Assembly (NCBI GenBank): GCA_964270895.1
Contig: OZ185449.1
From: Podarcis filfolensis
Taxonomy: Eukaryota
DNA length: 64,000 bases
Direction: 5' to 3' (one strand)
Position numbers and translations under genes: made by a program. How positions within the stretch are numbered: the first letter of the stretch is position 1; each line of letters begins with the position of its first letter. The notes below the pieces were generated by a model, which saw nothing but the letters and a program-made list of their open reading frames with translations, was not told the DNA's origin and did not search any database. Shown here piece after piece: positions 6,524-63,802 of the stretch.

Positions 6524-6902
6524 TGTTGTTGTGTTGTTTAGTCGTTTAGTCGTGTCCGACTTGTTGCAACCCCATGGACCAGAGCACGCCAGGCACTCCT
6601 GTCTTCCACTGCCTCCCGCAGTTTGGTCAAACTCATGCTGGTAGCTTCCACAACACTATCCAACCATCTCATCCTCTGTCGTCCCCTTCTCCTTGTGCCC
6701 TCCATCTTTCCCAACATCAGGGTCTTTTCCAGGGAGTCTTCTCTTCTCATGAGGTGGCCAAAGTACTGGAGCCTCAGCTTCAGGATCTGTCCTTCCAGTG
6801 AGTACTCAGGGCTGATTTCCTTAACATTGGATAGGTTTGATCTTCTTGCAGTACATGGGACTCTCAAGAGTCTCCTCCAGCACCATAATTCCAGCACCAT
6901 AA
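6524..6902 (-). mobile_element. 5'-truncated BovB (RTE) LINE
   Basis: Translation EISPEYSLEG...LQYFGHLMRREDSLEKTLMLGK.EG.RRRGRQRMRWLD is the BovB C-terminus. Short-repeat tail. 12-bp TSD TTTGAGGGGAAT at 6512-6523 and 6903-6914. Confidence 0.92.
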
Positions 6903-21800: not shown

Positions 21801-22004
21801 CTAAAACGTCTTTCCTCTGGATTGGCGAAGTAAACAGCAACAGCCTTTCCAGCTAGGGGCTTCAACAATGGGATAATGAGAAGTTGTTTCCAATTACTAG
21901 GCAGGAAAGAAAACCTGTCACTAAAGCAGTGTGGTGTTGTTGTTGTTGTCATTGGTAGTGGTGGTAGTGGTGAAGAAGAGGCTCCAGGTAGATACTCATA
22001 TGTG

Positions 22005-22594
22005 TGTCATGGACTGGTTGGATGCAGAGGAATGGTGGGAGGAACTAGCTGGAGAACTTCCAGAAAAGGAAGGCTCAGAGCCCAGGGATTGGTGGTGGAA
22101 TGATGATGAGTGGTCAGAGGGAGAAGAGGGAGAATACAGGGAAGAGGAGGTGTCAGATGCTGAAGAGGTAACAGGGCTGAGTGAGCTGGGAGAGTCTGTG
22201 GCAGAGAGAAGCCCAGAATCAGAGGCAGAAGCTGAAGCAGGAGAAGAGGGAGGCCAAGAGGCAGAGGTGAGTCCGGCTGGTGAAGAGTCATGGGTGTCTC
22301 CTCCTCTTGCTACGACAAGCTCCCCTTCCCCCCGGTCTCCCAGAACCAGAAGAGGCATGAAAAGGGCAGAGGAGTGGTTGGCTTCATGCAGGCGCAGTCT
22401 CTGATTGCTTGGAAAAAGCCTGAGGAGGTGGGCACTTTCAGTCTTGGCAACTGATTTTCATGGAAGAAGACCACTGGGAATGAGCTACTCTGCTCATTAA
22501 GCCTGACAGTCAAGTCTGTGGAGATCCTTCTTTTTGCTAATAAAGTTAACTATCTTTGAACTGTGTGATTACAGACCAGCACACTCCTGTGACA
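22005..22594 (+). mobile_element. Solo LTR (Gypsy-like), 590 bp
   Basis: TGTCA...TGACA termini, perfect 5-bp TSD ATGTG (22000-22004 and 22595-22599), AATAAA near 22539. Confidence 0.88.
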
Positions 22595-23849
22595 ATGTGT
22601 TAGAAAAGCCTGATCACTGAGCTATGGCCATGACCCAGCAACTGCTTTAGAACCTGAAAGTTCTAATTGGTTCCCATTAGCAGCTCAATAGGACTGGTAG
22701 GCAGGGAGACCAACAGCAGGTGAAGGCAGAGCTAAGGAAGGCAGAGAAAACTAATTTATTGTTTTGTCCCTGGCCTCCTCCATCCCGAGTTGCAGAAGGG
22801 AAATGCTGAGAATGAGGAAGCACCAGAGGATAAGCAGTAACATCCCTTTCACTGGTTGTAAGCCAGAAGACAGGCAGGTAAGTAGGCTGAGGTTGGTGGG
22901 GCAGTTTGTCCTAATGGACCAGCCTCCACTGTTAAGCCACCAGCAGATCTATCCTCTGTGAAAACAGTCAGTGAAAGGGCCAGTATTAAAAATGGCCAGA
23001 GGGTTAGACATGCTAGTCGTGTCGCTTCTTAAACATTAACTCATTTATTATGACATATTCTTCTTCAACCAGATCCCTGCTTCATCAGATGCATGAAGTG
23101 TTATCCTCACTTGGCATATGTATGGGTGCAGAAGGGGGCAGAAAAAAAGGAGAGGAGCGAACACTGGTATCAAATGTTCCAAAATGCAAAAAGTACTGTC
23201 TGTGACCATCTGCTTGAAGTTTAAAAGCATGCGGTGCAAACGCAAGCTGTTTGTACATTGCATATTTTTCGACTGGGTGTTTTATTCTGTTTTGCAGTGT
23301 TAAAGTTAGTGATTGCCTGCGTTAGAAAGTGGAAGGCATAATAGTATTTAACATTCCCGCAGCCAGCAATTAAGGGTCAGGGTATGGCGCTTCTCATCTG
23401 TTGCCTAGCTTCCCCAAATCGTGATGACACATGTCTAGCGTCTCTCATGAACTTCACCAAATGACAAATACAGGGATTGTGGACTCATCTAATGGGAACT
23501 GTTTGAATCACAACCTCTTTCTATCAAGGATTCGTGACTGTCAGGATTGACTGGGTGTTGCGTTTTTCATTTCCTTGTCAATGACTATCTTCTCATTACC
23601 ATAGAATATGGTGTTCTTGCCTCTAAAATGTCTAGTGTTTTGACAGACATTCTAGGCATTTTTTTTTAACTGAGTGGCCAAATTTCCCTCCCCTGTGGTT
23701 TGGATCCAATGATGACACAATACAAGTGGAAGACTATTCTATTCATAGAAGAGCTGAAGGGGAGGGTATGATGTCCAAAATTCCCTATTACAGCTGCAAC
23801 CTGCCATCCCACCCCCTATAATAATTTTGGATAACTCCCTCACCACCAG

Positions 23850-39521: not shown

Positions 39522-42500
39522 GTAAACTCCCTGCCAACTCTCTTATGCACAGCGGCATCCAAATCAACAAACTGTATTATGCTCTTTCACACAAACAGTT
39601 GTGCATATTTGGAGGCAGCTTGTGCCTGTGCTCATCGTGTTGTGTGAACAAGTCTATTTTTTTAAAAAAGATATTTATTAAAATTTTACAGACAAAAGAA
39701 AGTTACAGAATAAGAAGAGAAAAATAAAAAAAATAAAAAGACAAAGAAAAATACAAAGTACATGAAAAAATAAAAAACAATTAAAAACAGATCAATCTTT
39801 TCATATCTTATATTTCAATTACTTGTTTCCTGACCTCCTCACACCTCCCTTTTTTGTATTCCAGTTCACATAGTTAATTCAGCAAATCCTTTCCCTCTTT
39901 GTTTTTATCTTAATTCTATGTCTTAACATATTATAACTTTATATTTTCATCTAATTATCAGTCCATTTTTACATATTCTTTTTAACCTTATTGCTAAAGC
40001 CACTTCATTTCAATCCAGCATCATTTTAGCATTCATTAATTTTACAATGTTTCTGCAGATAGTCTTTAAACTTCTTCCAATCTTCTTCCACCAACTCTTC
40101 TCCCTGGTCTCGGATTCTGCCAGTCATTTCCGCCAGTTCCAAATAGTCTATCACTTTCATCTGCCATTCTTCCAAGGTGGGTAGATCTTGTGTCTTCCAA
40201 TACTTTGCGATGAGAATTCTTGCTGCTGTTGTTGCATACATAAAGAAAGTTCTGTCCTTCTTTGGCACCAATTGGCCGACCATGCCCAGGAGAAAGGCCT
40301 CTGGTTTCTTCAGGAAGAAGAAACCATACCTTTTTCATTTCATTATAGATCATCTCCCAGAAAGCCATAATCCTTGGGCACGTCCACCAAAGGTGAAAGA
40401 ATGTACCTTCATTTTCTTTACATTTCCAACACTTATTATCGGGCAAATGATATATTTTTGCAAGCTTGACTGGTGTCATGTACCACCTGTATATCATTTT
40501 CATAATATTCTCTCTTAAGGCATTACATGCCGTGAATTTCATACCTGTGGTCCACAACTGTTCCCAGTCAGCAAACATTATGTTATGTCCAACATCTTGT
40601 GCCCATTTTATCATAGCAGATTTAACCGTTTCATCCTGAGTGTTCCATCTCAACAGCAAGTTATACATTCTTGATAATATCTTAGTTTTGGGATCTAACA
40701 GTTCTGTTTCCAATTTTGATTTTTCCACCTGGAAACCAATTTTTTTGTCCAAGTTGTAGACCTCCCTTATTTGATAATAATGAAGCCAATCTCGCACTTT
40801 ATCTTTTAGTTTCTCAAAACTCTGCAATTTCAGTTTGTCACCCTCCTGTTCCAAAATCTCCCAATATTTTGGCCATTTGGCCTCCATATTGAGTTTTTTC
40901 TGAGCCTTCGCTTCCATCGGTGATAGCCACCTTGGGGTTTTATTTTCAAGTAAATCTTTATATCTTGTCCAGACATTAAACAATGCTCTTCTGACAATAT
41001 GGTTTTTAAATGCTTTGTGTGCTTTAACCTTGTCATACCACAGATATGCATGCCACCCAAAAACGTTATTGAAACCTTCTAAATCCAAAATGTCTGTGTT
41101 CTCAAGAAGCAGCCATTCTTTCAACCAGCAGAATGCTGCTGATTCATAATAGAGTTTAAGGTCTGGCAGGGCAAATCCACCTCTATCCTTTGCATCAGTT
41201 AATATTTTAAATTTTATTCTGGGCTTCTTACCCTGCCAGACAAATCTAGAAATATCTCTCTGCCACTTCTTGAAACAATCCATTTTGTCCAAAATTTGCA
41301 ATGATTGAAATAAAAATTACATTCTTGGCAATACATTCATCTTTATAACGGCAATTCGACCAAACAAGGAAAGCTTCAAATTTGACCATATTTCAAGATC
41401 CTTTTTCACTTCTGACCAACATTTCTCGTAGTTATCTTTAAATAAATTTAAGTTTTTAGCGGTCATGTTAACCCCCAGGTATTTTACTTTCTTTACCAGT
41501 GTTAAACCCGTCTCCTTCTGAAACCTCTTTCTCAATCGGTGTTAATTTTTTTTCAAGAACCTTAGTCTTTAACTTGTTCAATTTAAATCCTGCCACTTGA
41601 CCAAATTCCTGAATCAATTCTAATACTCTTTTAGTACTAGATTCTGGCTCCTGTAATGTCAATACTAAGTCATCTGCAGACGCTTTAAGTTTGTACTGTT
41701 TAGCTCCGACCTGAATACCTTTAATCACATGGTCCCTTCTAATCATGTTTAGCAAAACCTCCAGGACCGAAATGAAAAGCAATGGGGAAATTGGGCAGCC
41801 TTGTCGTGTCCCTTTCTCCATCTTAAATTCTTCTGTCACCACGTTGTTAACTATCAATTTCGCCTTTTGTTCTGAATAAATTGCACCTATACCGTTTTCG
41901 AAACCTTGACCAACTCCCATCCCCGGAAGATTTTTCTTCATAAAACTCCAAGAAATATTATCAAAAGCTTTCTCCGCATCAACAAATATCAAAACTGCTT
42001 TAGTATTAATGTTCACTTGCAGTTTCTCTAAAATGTTAATTATGTTTCTCGTGTTATCAGACAAGTGTCTACCCGGGAGAAAGCCAGCTTGGTCTTTGTG
42101 TATCTCCTCAACTAGTACATTTTTCAATCTTTTAGCCAAAATATCTGCAAAAATTTTATAATCCACGTTGAGTAGGGATATGGGGCGGTAGTTCTTAAGT
42201 TGTGTTTTTTCAGACTCAGTTTTCAGTATGAGTGTAATATAAGCTTCCTTCCACGACTCTGGCGCTTTTTTCCCCTCCAAAATTTCATTACAAACCTCCT
42301 TTAGTGGTTGAAATAGCCAATCTTTCAGAGATTTATAATATATTGAGGTTAAACCGTCCGGCCCTGGAGATTTGCCCAACTGCATATTCTGGATGGCACC
42401 TTCCACCTCCTGTTCTGTTATTTTATAATTAAGCATTAACTTATTTTCTTGAGAGATTTTTTGTAATCCATTTGTTCTTAAAAACTGATCTATGTCGGTC

Positions 42501-43165
42501 TCTTTCTGTGGCCCTTGTGTATATAGTTGTTTGAAATATCTCTGGAAGCACTTTCTAATCTCCACTGGATTCTGTATATTCTTTCCTTCCACTTCCAAGT
42601 TTGTAATAGTATTAAGTTTTTGTCTTTTTTTCATCTGCCAAGCTAGCAGTTTCCCACATTTATTAGCCGATTCAAATGTCTTTTGTCTCATCTGCTTGAT
42701 TTTCCATTCTATTTCCTGATTTATCATTTTCATATATTGTACTTGATACAACTTTATTTCTCTCAGAATCTCTTGCGACTTTGGTTTCGCTCTTAATTTC
42801 TTCTCTCCTTCTTTTATTTTCTCCAAAATTTTATCTTTTTTCTCATTTTGAGTTCTCTTCTTTATTGCATTCTGTTGAATCAGAAACCCTCTCATAACCG
42901 CTTTACTTGCGTCCCAGATTACTCTTCTTTCAACCGTAGTATTCAAATTTATCTCAAAGTAGTCTTTCAAAGTTTTTTGGGCCTTCTTAGTAACTTCTGC
43001 ATCTCTAAACAGGGTGTCATTCATCCTCCATCTAAAGGAACCAATTGGTGTTAATTTCATCTCCATTCTCACTGCATTATGGTTGGAGCAAGTTTTAGGG
43101 CAAATTTCCACTTTTCGAATTTTAGGAGCCAATCCTCTAGTTATCCAAATTTGGTCAATTCTTGT

Positions 43166-43382
43166 TACAGATAGGTAGCCGTGTTGGTCTGCCATAGTCA
43201 AAAAAAATATAAAAAATTCTTTCCAGTAGCACGTTAAAGACCAACTAAGTTAGTTCTTGGTATGAGCTTTCGTGTGCATGCACACTTCTTCAGTATCTGA
43301 AGAAGTGTGCATGCACACGAAAGCTCATACCAAGAACTAACTTAGTTGGTCTTTAAGGTGCTACTGGAAAGAATTTTTTTTT
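43166..43382. mobile_element. Penelope-like element remnant (inverted pseudo-LTR pair) inserted in L1 ORF2
   Basis: 16-bp TSD TTTGGTCAATTCTTGT at 43150-43165 and 43383-43398, with 83-bp inverted arms. The sequence (GTAGCCGTGTTGGTCTG...GAAAGCTCATAC...AAGGTGCTAC) resembles reptile Penelope-like termini as I recall them. Confidence 0.8.
43293..43330 (+). ncRNA. Minimal type I hammerhead ribozyme motif
   Basis: GTAT (stem I), CTGAAGA, extra A, GTGTG/CATG/CACAC (stem II), GAAA, GC, TC (cleavage after 43326), ATAC (stem I). Stem III is the palindrome AGCT. Confidence 0.75.
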
Positions 43383-43986
43383 TTTGGTCAATTCTTGTCC
43401 ATGTCATTTTGGCTTCAGAGAAGAAAGTTCCCTCTCTACCCAAGGGGTTCTTAGTTCTCCAAGTATCAATTAAGTCCATGTTGTCAGTCATGTCAAAAAA
43501 AGTTTTTGGTAGTCTGCCATCTTTGGTAATTACCTGTCTTTGTGCCTTATCCATATTTGTGGACACCACTCCGTTCATATCTCCCATCATGATGATGTTA
43601 TACTCCATGTAGTCCAACAATGTCTCATGCAACTTCTTAAAAAAATTCAGATTTCCCCTCATTTGGTGCATAAACTCCTACTATCAAGAATTTCTCTCCT
43701 TGAATTTGTATTTCAATTGCCACAAATCTTCCTTGGTCATCTTTAAAAATAAATTTCGGTGATAGGCTCTCTTTTGCATAGATTACAACTCCTCTCTTTT
43801 TAACTTTGTCTGACGAAATAAACTCTTGGCCCAATCTTTTATTAATCAGTACTTTCCTATGGAGTTTCCTGTAAACAAATCAAGTCCAATTGTTCCTTTT
43901 TCAATAAGTGAAAAACCTTTTTCCTTTTCTCCGGGGAATTAAAACCGTGAATATTCCAACTTAGTAATTGCAGAGACATGGTGTGG

Positions 43987-45096
43987 TTATTTTGCTTTTC
44001 CTCCAACTGCTCCAAGTACTTGTTCTTCTTCTGTCGGTGGTGTCTCTTTCTCTGGTTTATCCAATCCTGAAGGTAGTGATACTAAGTCTAATAATCCTGG
44101 TTTTAATGCTCTTGGCTCTTCTTCTTCTTCGGCTTCTTTTTGTAGATCTTCTTCGTGGTCTCTCAAAAATTTTTCTTTTTCTTCCACTGATCTTATTTTA
44201 GTTTTTTTCCTTTTATAGGTAAAAGAAAGGCCTTGGGGAAACTCCCACCTGAAAACAATTCTGTTTCTTCTCGGCAGGGCCACCAGATCTCTGTAGTTAG
44301 CCCTAAGATCCAATAAATGTTTCGGAATATCCTTGAAGATCTCTACTCTTGATTCTTGTATCTCCAAAGTCTGCTGGAAATGCAGATTCAATATTTTGTC
44401 TCTCTCTTCTTTTGTACGGAGGGTAATCAAACAGTCTCTCACCCTGTTTTTTCTCCCTCCTCTTCTGAGTCTAAAGGCACTTACTATCTTAAAATCTTGC
44501 TTAGCATCCAGGTTCAAAAAGTCTGCAAATTCCTGCGTAAGAAAGTCACTTAAACTGTCTTTTTCAAGTTCAGGTACTGCCCTGATCCTTAAATTAATCT
44601 GTTTTTCCTTAAGCTCAATCATAGACAGAAGCGTCCTGTGGTCCTCAAGTTGTTTACATATCGGTGTAATCTTTTCCTCCACAGCCGAAGCTTTTTCCTG
44701 TGCTTCCTCAGCTGCCTTTTGGTTCAAAGTAGATTTTTGCAGCAGTCTTTCAATGGATTCTGTGTTTGAGTTCACCTTTTGCCCCAAACTATTAATGCTG
44801 GTAGTGTTTTGGTCGATTTTAGTTGTTTGTTCAGTAACTTGATTACTTAATTTTTCCAAGGTTTCATAAATTTTGCTTAATACTGAAGTAAAACTCTCTT
44901 CAGATGCCACTCCTTTAGGCCCAACTTGTACAGGATCCTTTCCTTGTGTTGCAGTTTGTGCTGCAGTTTGTGCAGGGTCTTTTCCTTGTGGTACTGGGGG
45001 GGCGGATGCGGATGCTCTGCGCTGCTGCAGTATGCTGGTCTGTGTCAGTCTAACCTTACCCGATCTTGTTGTCTTTTCCTGAGGCAAGTCTGCCAT
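43987..45096 (-). CDS. L1 ORF1p (369 aa; coiled coil, RRM, CTD), open frame
   Basis: Heptad-rich central region, then NLRIRAVPE, IFKDIP and FPQGLSF motifs typical of L1 ORF1p. Stop lies 7 nt before the ORF2 ATG. Confidence 0.88.
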   Translation of the reverse strand: MADLPQEKTTRSGKVRLTQTSILQQRRASASAPPVPQGKDPAQTAAQTATQGKDPVQVGPKGVASEESFTSVLSKIYETLEKLSNQVTEQTTKIDQNTTSINSLGQKVNSNTESIERLLQKSTLNQKAAEEAQEKASAVEEKITPICKQLEDHRTLLSMIELKEKQINLRIRAVPELEKDSLSDFLTQEFADFLNLDAKQDFKIVSAFRLRRGGRKNRVRDCLITLRTKEERDKILNLHFQQTLEIQESRVEIFKDIPKHLLDLRANYRDLVALPRRNRIVFRWEFPQGLSFTYKRKKTKIRSVEEKEKFLRDHEEDLQKEAEEEEEPRALKPGLLDLVSLPSGLDKPEKETPPTEEEQVLGAVGGKAK

Positions 45097-49431: not shown

Positions 49432-49614
49432 TACTATAAACAACTTGTGGTATTTCTTAAGCTCATAGCATCTGAGTAGGGATTAATTCTGCATAGTTTT
49501 TAATCAGTTCATATAACTGATTAATGAAATGCTGCACTCCTACTTTATCCTAGAAATGTTAGCAAAAATATTGCATCCAGAGCTCAGAACTCCAGCTGAA
49601 GCATATTTCTCTAG

Positions 49615-50165
49615 AGACTGGTTGGGGTCAGGCAAGGATGGTATGGAGTGAGGAGTTATCTCTTTATTGTCAAAAGTACCCTTATAAGTTAGGCAAAGAC
49701 AGCCCTGTGTCTCTCAACTCCTCCTAGGTGTGCACCCGATGAGGCATTTGCCACAACAGAGAGGCCTTGTCCCAATCTCATCTTAAGTATCTTCCCCACT
49801 AGAGTTGCAGGCAAGCAGGTGAAGACTCCACCTGCATATAATCTGCTTCTGCTCCTCCCACTTCAGTCCTCTTCTGATCCTGGGAGAGATTGGAGTAGGA
49901 GAGGTGAGGGCAGGAGGAGGAGGAGGTGAGGAAGCCCTTGACTCTATGCCAGCTGGACCTCTCTCTCCCTCCTCCTGCATCTGCACCTGTTCTTCACCCT
50001 CCAATCCTGCATCTTCTCCTGCCTCTGACTCTCAGTCTCTTGGCTGTTACAGACTTCCTCAGAGCACTGACCCCTTCTTCCAAGTCAGTCTCCAACCCTC
50101 CTTCTCCCAGCGCCCATGCTTCAGTATCCAGCCACCACTCCCCAGCATCCAGCCAGGCCCTGACA
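49615..50165 (-). mobile_element. Second solo LTR, diverged relative of the 22005-22594 LTR
   Basis: The minus strand starts TGTCAGGGCCTGGCTGGATGC, versus TGTCATGGACTGGTTGGATGC in the first LTR. AATAAA on the minus strand near 49663. CTAGAG occurs at 49611-49616 and 50166-50171. The left boundary is uncertain. Confidence 0.7.
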
Positions 50166-50377
50166 CTAGAGTTAGAAGAAAGAAAAGTAGGCTACTTGAA
50201 ATTGCAATACTATCCTCTCTGAGCCTCTAGGCTCATATGGGATAAAAGGCAGTGTGAATGAAATTCTTGGGAGTTGGGCTAGATGATGTTCAGTGTCTAC
50301 AATTCTATGATTCTATGAATGAACAAATATGTAAAATGCAGATGCCATGCTAAGTTATGTTTTACTCCCTTCATTAG

Positions 50378-62131: not shown

Positions 62132-62810
62132 ATACGATACGATAATCTTTATTGTCATTGTCCCATACAGAACAACGAAATTGAAAAATCTACATAAAAC
62201 ATTCAAAACTTAACAGGCCTTCTATCCCAGCTATCCCAACCTAGTTAGCGCACTAAAAACTCTGATACCCTATTTTTAAATACAATATACTCCCACAGAG
62301 ACTCCTTACACTGCGTTTAAAACCAAAATCGCATTTGGGTAGAAACTGTTTCTCAGGCGGCTAGTCCTAGTCTTTGTAACCCTGTACCTTCTTCCAGAAG
62401 GCAGAAGCTGAAAGATATCATTTTCGGGGTGCGCACTATCCTGCACTATCTCTGCTGCTTTCTTATGGTACCTGGAAGCATAGATTTGATCCAAGGCAGG
62501 AAGAGTGCACCTAATTATTCTCTCCGCAGTCTTTAGAACGCTGGACAGCATTGTTTTTCCCCTAACCGTGCAGCTCCCAAACCACACGCACAGACCATAA
62601 GTTAATGCACTCTCCACAGTACAATGGTAAAATGCCATCAACATGTCCCTTGAGAGGTTGTTTTTCTGGAGGATTCTCAGAAAATATAGCCTCTGCTGTG
62701 CTCTCTTCATTAGGCCTTTGCTGTTTTCTCCCCAGGTTAGGTCATCTCGCAACTCCATTCCCAGAAATTGAAACACCGAGACCCGTTCCACGAATTTCCT
62801 CTCAATAATA
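62132..62810 (-). mobile_element. 5'-truncated Rex1/Babar-clade LINE
   Basis: AQQRLYFLR...ESALTY...LLPSGRRYR...RTSRLRNSFYP.A is the C-terminus typical of Rex/Babar. AATAAAG plus (ATCGT)n tail. Confidence 0.85.
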
Positions 62811-63802
62811 AGAACACTCAAATACAGTGTCACACTGACGTTCCTGGAATTGCTAATGGAAAAATGATTATAAGACATAATTATTATGGAAGTGGTCTTT
62901 AGTCTTTCTGAACACAGGACTCTGCTAGCATGGGCCCAGTTTTTGTTTTGTAAATGTATTATATGATTACCCTTGCTGCGTATAGATCTGCCCTCTTTTG
63001 TTTGCTTTCCTTCCTTCCTCTGACAGAAAAAAAAGTCACTGCCGTGCTGCTTTCACCCACATGAGGTCACGTGCTTCCAGTTCTTCAGTTGAGGACCAGT
63101 GTATTGCAAACGCATGATTGCAAACGCACCCAGAATCTCTCTGCTTTGTTGGGCAGAGACCTTAGCACCAAATAGAAGTCCTCAGGAGAAGGTGGTGCGA
63201 TGTGGCAAACCTTGTCAGTTGGGCCATCCATGCTGCCCCTACAGTTCTCCCACCTGTGGCAGATCAGCCTAGGTCCCTGCAAAGTGTTGCATGTCTTGCA
63301 AGCATCAGAGTGCTTAAAGAAGGGGTGGGGGGCCTCAGGCCCAAAAGGACCCAATGAGACCCTGCTCACTGGCATTGCATCACATCACATCTCCCTTGCT
63401 GAAATGTGCCATTGAACTCTGATAGTGCCTCTTGCTTGCTTGCCTGGATGGAGGATGCACAGGTGCGTATGTGCGTGTATAGAAACTAACTTACTGTACA
63501 AAGCTAGCTTTCCCATTCATTGACCTGCTCACTTTTGCCCCTGGTTCTGCATAGCCCAGGTCTGTGGCTCATAGAAGGTTGCCCCGGAAGTTCTTTGGCT
63601 CAGAAATGTTCCTCACCCCTGGTTTAACTAAACGCAACCAACACCCAACCCCTTCCCTAACAAAACATCACAGACCATCAACTTCAAGTCTTTTACCATG
63701 GTACCTCAGGAAGGTGGCAAGGTCCCAACATTGTCTGAGAACACAGCTACGTTGGCAAAGAAAAAGCGCTTTATATGTGTCTGTATATGCATTATAACGC
63801 TG

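Follow-up and report, generated by a model that had tools for sequence, protein, structure and literature searches.

MMTV sag and HIV nef are separate retroviral genes, each with its own start and expressed from spliced RNAs. Among retrotransposons, the plant CRM chromoviruses and some Reina elements have a gag-pol ORF that extends through the PPT into the 3′ LTR, and in group A of CRM the LTR-encoded part (the CR motif) is regarded as a putative chromatin-targeting domain of the integrase, according to the accessible parts of two reports (PMC3059260, PMC3605345). On the side of chromatin binding, the core sequence RRSARLSA of HMGN proteins binds the acidic patch of H2A-H2B, and Dsup and Dot5 use mimics of this motif, as stated in the accessible parts of two other papers (PMC12480509, PMC12871379). 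In the literature searched, which lay mostly outside the subscription journals, no description of a long U3-encoded Pol tail in vertebrate chromoviruses was found, and its titles and abstract openings contained no HMGN-like motif in a retrotransposon integrase.

Here, a stretch of 64,000 nucleotides from the Podarcis filfolensis genome (GCA_964270895.1, contig OZ185449.1; hereafter, the window) was analysed. It contains a solo LTR with an open frame of 131 codons. Judging from the sequence comparisons described below, this frame is probably the C-terminal tail of the Pol protein (integrase-chromodomain) of an old chromoviral Ty3/gypsy element, which was read via the PPT into the U3 of the 3′ LTR.

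Two Solo LTRs in the Window

The first LTR (copy 1, family A) lies at 22005..22594 on the plus strand. It has TGTCA...TGACA ends, is likely of chromoviral Ty3/gypsy origin, and is flanked by the 5′ copy (22000..22004) and the 3′ copy (22595..22599) of a 5-bp TSD, ATGTG. An ATG at 22009 opens a frame (22009..22404) that is closed by a stop codon at 22402-22404 after 131 codons. The translation is as quoted in a preliminary description of this DNA, which had reported a solo LTR with a 131-codon acidic ORF. The predicted product starts with an acidic segment (residues 1-95, 22009..22293) containing 37 D/E and 4 K/R residues. A Ser/Pro-rich segment (residues 96-112, 22294..22344) follows, in which 10 of 17 residues are S or P. 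The basic end (residues 113-131, 22345..22404) runs into an RRSxRL-type motif, which is cut by the stop codon in copy 1. An AATAAA sequence at 22539..22544, likely the polyadenylation signal, lies downstream of the frame. The frame can thus be placed in U3, and the overlap with U3 that had been proposed holds.

A Pfam search with the 131-residue product gave no family. A search of a protein database for proteins of near length gave only two unnamed family fragments. Longer, fused forms did not turn up when these were looked for, which is weak evidence. On the opposite strand of the LTR, a Ser-rich frame of 120 codons (21996-22358, minus strand) is likely a shadow of the acidic frame; the reverse frames of the LTR have no clear constraint between families A and B. 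DNA contigs under two organism labels bridge the insertion junctions; the aligned contigs were swamped by paralogous copies, which masked the orthologous frame.

The second LTR (copy 2, family B) is also a solo LTR and lies on the minus strand at 49616..50165, with a TCTAG TSD (5′ copy, 50166..50170; 3′ copy, 49611..49615) and an AATAAA sequence at 49663..49668. It has no ATG at nucleotide 5. One frameshift and one stop interrupt the frame: AWLDAGEWW and ESEAGEDAG...CRWSLHLL are read in different frames, separated by the stop. From the translation, the frame ends around position 49783, and the 3′ end of the LTR is degenerate. Copy 1 and copy 2 are 47% identical over 73 residues in tblastn (E 2.5e-10) and 66% identical over 218 nucleotides of DNA. 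Thus, a second, diverged LTR with the same motifs, as described before, is indeed present.

Exon translations place both LTRs in introns of a plus-strand BTB-Kelch gene, presumably KLHL4-like. Its exons span window positions 17689-59600; copy 1 lies in the sense orientation in an early intron and copy 2 in the antisense orientation in a later one. Both copies are decayed intronic fossils and likely make no protein, and copy 1 itself is ordinary decayed repeat DNA. Other repeats of the window include an element at 40066-45096 (minus strand), which I take to be LINE-1-like, with an ORF1 of 369 residues and ORF2 pieces of 575 and 405 residues. An inverted duplication of 89 nucleotides, of the perfect type, lies within this element (43205-43385). 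C-terminal fragments of the reverse transcriptases of other LINE families, which I assume to be RTE/BovB-like and Rex1-like, are found at 6538-6900 and 62306-62878, both on the minus strand.

Copies of Families A and B in the Genome

Family A has 4962 DNA and 10052 protein candidates in the genome, and its scored copies are 77-87% identical; family B has 366 candidates, and its scored copies are 74-80% identical. The copies of both families are decayed and scattered across many contigs. TG...CA termini, short inverted repeats, and a 5-bp TSD are found in copy 1 and in many copies of both families. For the counts given below, 90 loci were reduced to 75 (50 of family A and 25 of family B) by dropping 10 duplicates and five 5′-truncated copies of family B. 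The flanks of the 90 loci have only duplicates or host repeats in common. Recent segmental duplications, with flanks 96-99% identical, hold several of the LTR copies (L107 at C8:76.29-76.33 Mb, L045-L047, and L033/L036).

Is the start codon of copy 1 a family trait? An ATG at nucleotide 5 of the LTR, from which the frame had been said to open, is present in 33 of 49 family-A copies and in only 2 of 25 family-B copies; it is absent from copy 2 and from 23 of 25 copies of its family. A Met at this position also occurs in family E and a few others, while family C and most others read V-R or V-S there. Of 50 family-A copies, 21 have the stop codon of copy 1, 28 are open at this point, and one is gapped. 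Since 28 copies read past it, this stop is not the end of the frame in the family. Family B has a recurrent stop of its own (12 of 25 copies). Beyond the copy-1 stop, the frame next ends most often at the same place in both families, 11 codons further on (13 of 50 copies in A and 16 of 25 in B). The span of the copy-1 frame is open in 4 of the 49 other family-A copies and broken in 45, and all four open ones came from the frame-biased protein search.

Coding Constraint on the LTR Frame

Was the frame coding? At least 131 open codons on the plus strand were obtained in 33 of 3000 dinucleotide shuffles, so that the observed open frame is more than chance would be expected to give. The excess dN/dS was calculated pairwise among the 75 natural copies, as the divergence between families minus that within families. 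Between families A and B, it was 0.45 (CI 0.25-0.78) for the LTR frame, versus 0.70-1.34 for the remaining five. When only the in-register part was used, it was 0.43 (CI 0.25-0.71) versus 0.73-1.36 in the other five. The dN/dS within family B was 0.74-0.88. Transitions are not corrected for in this method, which puts neutrality at about 0.75-0.9, a level that the upper bound of the confidence interval touches. A short 3′ control region gave point values down to 0.49 with confidence intervals spanning 1.

In family A, the variants present in many copies prefer codon position 3 (30 versus 21 and 12 at the other positions, p 0.022), while rare variants are even; the same test with the 25 copies of family B was not significant (p 0.48). 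Five of six shared indels are in frame, versus 38 of 127 rare ones (p 0.014). The modal stop position is common to the two families, which are about 66% identical. These results support the view that the active element had a protein encoded in this frame, as had been proposed, and suggest a moderate coding constraint between A and B, as expected of a low-complexity tail.

Relatives with Internal Regions

No gag, integrase, or chromodomain match was found within 1.5 kb of the LTRs of families A and B at 108 loci (duplicates included). PPT patterns in the genome gave no linked A or B copy, and the flanks had no gag, integrase, or chromodomain, those of other families excepted. A PBS pattern gave three matches in the genome, versus two control matches, none being an A or B LTR. 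As no A or B copy with an interior or a linked RT was found, I infer the Pol link of these families from their relatives.

Using PPT and LTR-start patterns, family C was found right behind DNA coding for an SH3_Tf2-1 domain (GPY/F; E 1e-12) and a chromodomain. In L095/L096, L101, and L104, the chromodomain frame of family C passes through the PPT into the same register of the LTR; L093 and L103 have frameshifts. Of 102 chromodomain loci, 70 distinct junctions were left once 3 duplicates, and 29 loci that lacked a junction or a chromodomain, had been dropped. In 40 of these, the chromodomain and the LTR share one frame (p 4e-5 versus an expectation of 1/3), a figure to be read with the caution that the copies are not independent and 19 of the 70 belong to one family. 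The other 30 junctions do not keep the phase; visible mis-calls account for some of them, and I attribute the remainder to copy decay.

Two young full-length elements with intact TSDs settle the architecture in relatives of A and B. In L270, whose LTRs are 99.3% identical, a Pol frame of 1374 codons ends 300 nucleotides (100 codons) inside the 3′ LTR. In L272 (LTRs 98.6% identical), the chromodomain frame enters the 3′ LTR for 360 nucleotides (120 codons). Thus, the continuation of the frame from the interior into the 3′ LTR, which the preliminary description had suggested looking for in full-length elements, is found in these relatives, while no A or B copy with an interior was found. The very young family to which L270 belongs has many copies with near-identical LTRs and a common open Pol frame of 1374 codons. 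Contig C19 (43 Mb) carries many chromodomain-bearing gypsy copies of different families and is possibly a repeat-accumulating sex chromosome. A relative of one of the families of this genome is 89% identical to a Podarcis protein.

The nearest relative of family A with an interior is L218. Its LTR resembles that of A (71-80% over 65-125 nucleotides) and lies behind an integrase, a chromodomain, and a PPT; allowing for one frameshift, the linker that follows the chromodomain shares the LTR frame. The internal DNA of L218, when used as a genome query, matched only L218 itself. A profile comparison of family A with the chromodomain-linked family C gave a match of 68% (E 5e-5) when read in the LTR frame, whereas each of the two remaining frames gave about 1%, based on six and five sequences. 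The WLD.xEWW start, which had been taken as a motif of the family, is kept in A, B, C, and L218 and is absent from family E and other families. The GPY/F-SH3 and chromodomain were seen upstream of the PPT in family C, L218, and family E, and not on A or B themselves; the chromodomain of the family E protein (PF00385) scores above the cut-off. A tail of about 75-120 codons that turns from acidic to Ser/Pro-rich and finally to basic is found in many families.

The Basic End of the Tail

In family E, a young family, the tail ends with SPRRSARLKAR; 8 of 18 copies have RRSxRL, and 7 have RRSARL. Thus, the resemblance of the basic end to a chromatin-binding motif, as noted before, is borne out, since family E carries the same RRSARL as the HMGN core. 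The motif lies 16 residues after an SP in all seven in-frame E copies, in 4 of 6 A copies, and in 1 of 2 B copies. Only 3 of the 50 A copies have an intact RRSxRL; none of the 25 B copies has one at the motif position, and copy 1 is interrupted there by its stop. Among 77 other retrotransposon-type chromodomain proteins, one has RRSxRL; hence, the motif is not general. P0090, an unrelated database Pol with a chromodomain, ends with RRSARI just past a PPT-like stretch. In 13 of 70 LTR-encoded tails (loci L162-L236, several families), a basic end of the LxCWK/CWKK type, a second candidate motif, is found instead of RRSxRL. Database proteins P0026 and P0095, from an amphisbaenian and a viper, have similar acidic-then-basic tails. 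The profiles of the A and E tails gave no significant match (1.7%), and the E tail is weakly constrained (0.66, CI 0.47-0.90, versus 0.23 in the chromodomain region).

From the motif alone, one could tentatively propose that the RRSxRL end anchors the integration complex on the acidic patch of nucleosomal H2A-H2B. A complex prediction for H2A-H2B with a natural 31-residue end of family A gave a score of 0.03, which speaks neither for nor against such binding. A nuclear-import signal is the main alternative to a nucleosome tether and fits the basic end equally well. A wider idea, likewise speculative, is that the U3 of squamate chromoviruses might serve as a fast-evolving coding cassette for a second chromatin-reading arm of the integrase, with an HMGN-mimicking RRSxRL that docks on the acidic patch in several families and an LxCWK-type end in others. 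Should the acidic patch indeed be bound by the RRSxRL end, vertebrate chromoviruses would be tethered to chromatin at two points, by the chromodomain and by an HMGN mimic. An acidic-patch tether of this kind in a retrotransposon integrase would be a vertebrate counterpart to the CR motif of plants, and it would offer a short, testable peptide for how chromoviruses choose their integration sites.

Alternative Explanations

The frame had been explained as a separate accessory protein encoded in the LTR, with its own ATG, as in MMTV sag and HIV nef, and translated from a spliced or LTR-internal transcript. The measured coding constraint would also fit such a protein, and the ATG of 33 of 49 A copies, with the Met of family E and a few others, agrees with it. 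The ATG is nevertheless found in just 2 of 25 B copies and is missing from family C and most others, and in the relatives the frame is continuous with Pol and so is not a separate ORF. Those relatives that have interiors are chromoviral Ty3/gypsy retrotransposons rather than retroviruses. Moreover, an ATG five bases into U3 would lie upstream of the LTR element's own start site. Two gene models in the database, P0010 and P0070, start from the LTR-frame Met of family E and continue into gag, which is in favor of the accessory protein; they are automatic predictions rather than transcripts and are probably prediction artefacts. A spliced U3-gag fusion might also lie behind them. Taken together, the separate accessory protein is unlikely, and the analogy with sag and nef was not upheld. 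Any gene model that starts at this LTR Met should be regarded with caution, as probably an annotation artefact.

Could the frame be non-coding, with Pol merely running on into a purine-rich U3 that is poor in stops because of its composition? The constraint is modest, with a confidence interval reaching the neutral baseline, and one reverse frame of family A also has just one common stop. Furthermore, tails cannot be aligned from one family to another, and the Pols of many chromoviruses in the database end in a short or unrelated tail. Yet the shuffles rarely (33 of 3000) gave a comparable open frame, and the low A-B dN/dS is confined to the LTR frame, as is the A-C profile match; indels shared in frame and a stop position common to such diverged families also speak against it. 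A non-coding tail, explained by purine-rich DNA alone, is decidedly improbable. Domestication by the host, with the copy at 22005 giving a small protein from the intron of the Kelch-like gene, is hardly credible. Copy 1 lies in the sense orientation within the intron and keeps an open frame over a span in which 45 of the 49 other A copies are broken; however, the 4 equally open copies from the frame-biased search mean that many more are expected among thousands. Copy 1 also carries the recurrent stop inside the motif, and its product has no Pfam family and only the two unnamed relatives among proteins of near length.

Under the preferred reading, a Pol tail encoded in U3, translation of the genomic RNA into Gag-Pol would have gone on past the chromodomain and the PPT for about 140 codons of the 3′ U3. 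After processing, the integrase would end in a disordered arm, acidic with a basic tip, and the tip might tether the integration complex to nucleosomes, beside the chromodomain. Recombination between the LTRs would strand the tail sequence in thousands of solo LTRs, away from the upstream coding region, and a Met five bases into the solo LTR would make the stranded tail look like a gene. What look like small ORFs in thousands of solo LTRs would thus be fossils of one known architecture, in which Pol extends into U3.

Comparison with Known Systems

Like MMTV sag and HIV nef, the frame is a coding sequence that overlaps U3. Unlike them, it has no conserved start, and in relatives it continues Pol. 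The family members resemble the vertebrate Sushi-type chromoviruses (Metaviridae), as far as these are characterised in the accessible part of PMC3601003, in the TGTYA-type start of the LTR and the short TSD; in relatives, the GPY/F-SH3 and chromodomain at the integrase end are also shared.

The RRSARL of family E and the RRSxRL found in part of the A copies stand in a low-complexity context of acidic and basic residues and are similar to the motifs of HMGN, Dsup, and Dot5 in the accessible text on these proteins. They differ from the RRSARLSA of HMGN in that the next residues are KA or L-rich rather than SA, and in that the protein carrying them is a retrotransposon Pol.

The closest likeness in architecture is to CRM, as far as the accessible parts of the reports describe it: the Pol ORF enters the 3′ LTR, by 100 codons in L270 and 120 in L272, both being relatives rather than members of A or B. 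Unlike in CRM, the canonical chromodomain is kept upstream of the PPT (family E); no CR motif replaces it, and the LTR-encoded tail is an extra. The present case also differs from plant CRM and Reina in its vertebrate host and in a tail that is acidic and then basic; the likeness considered here is one of architecture. Thus, the extension of Pol into the 3′ LTR is already known from plant CRM and some Reina elements, and what is found here is a variant in a vertebrate host, in which the chromodomain is kept and the tail is extra.
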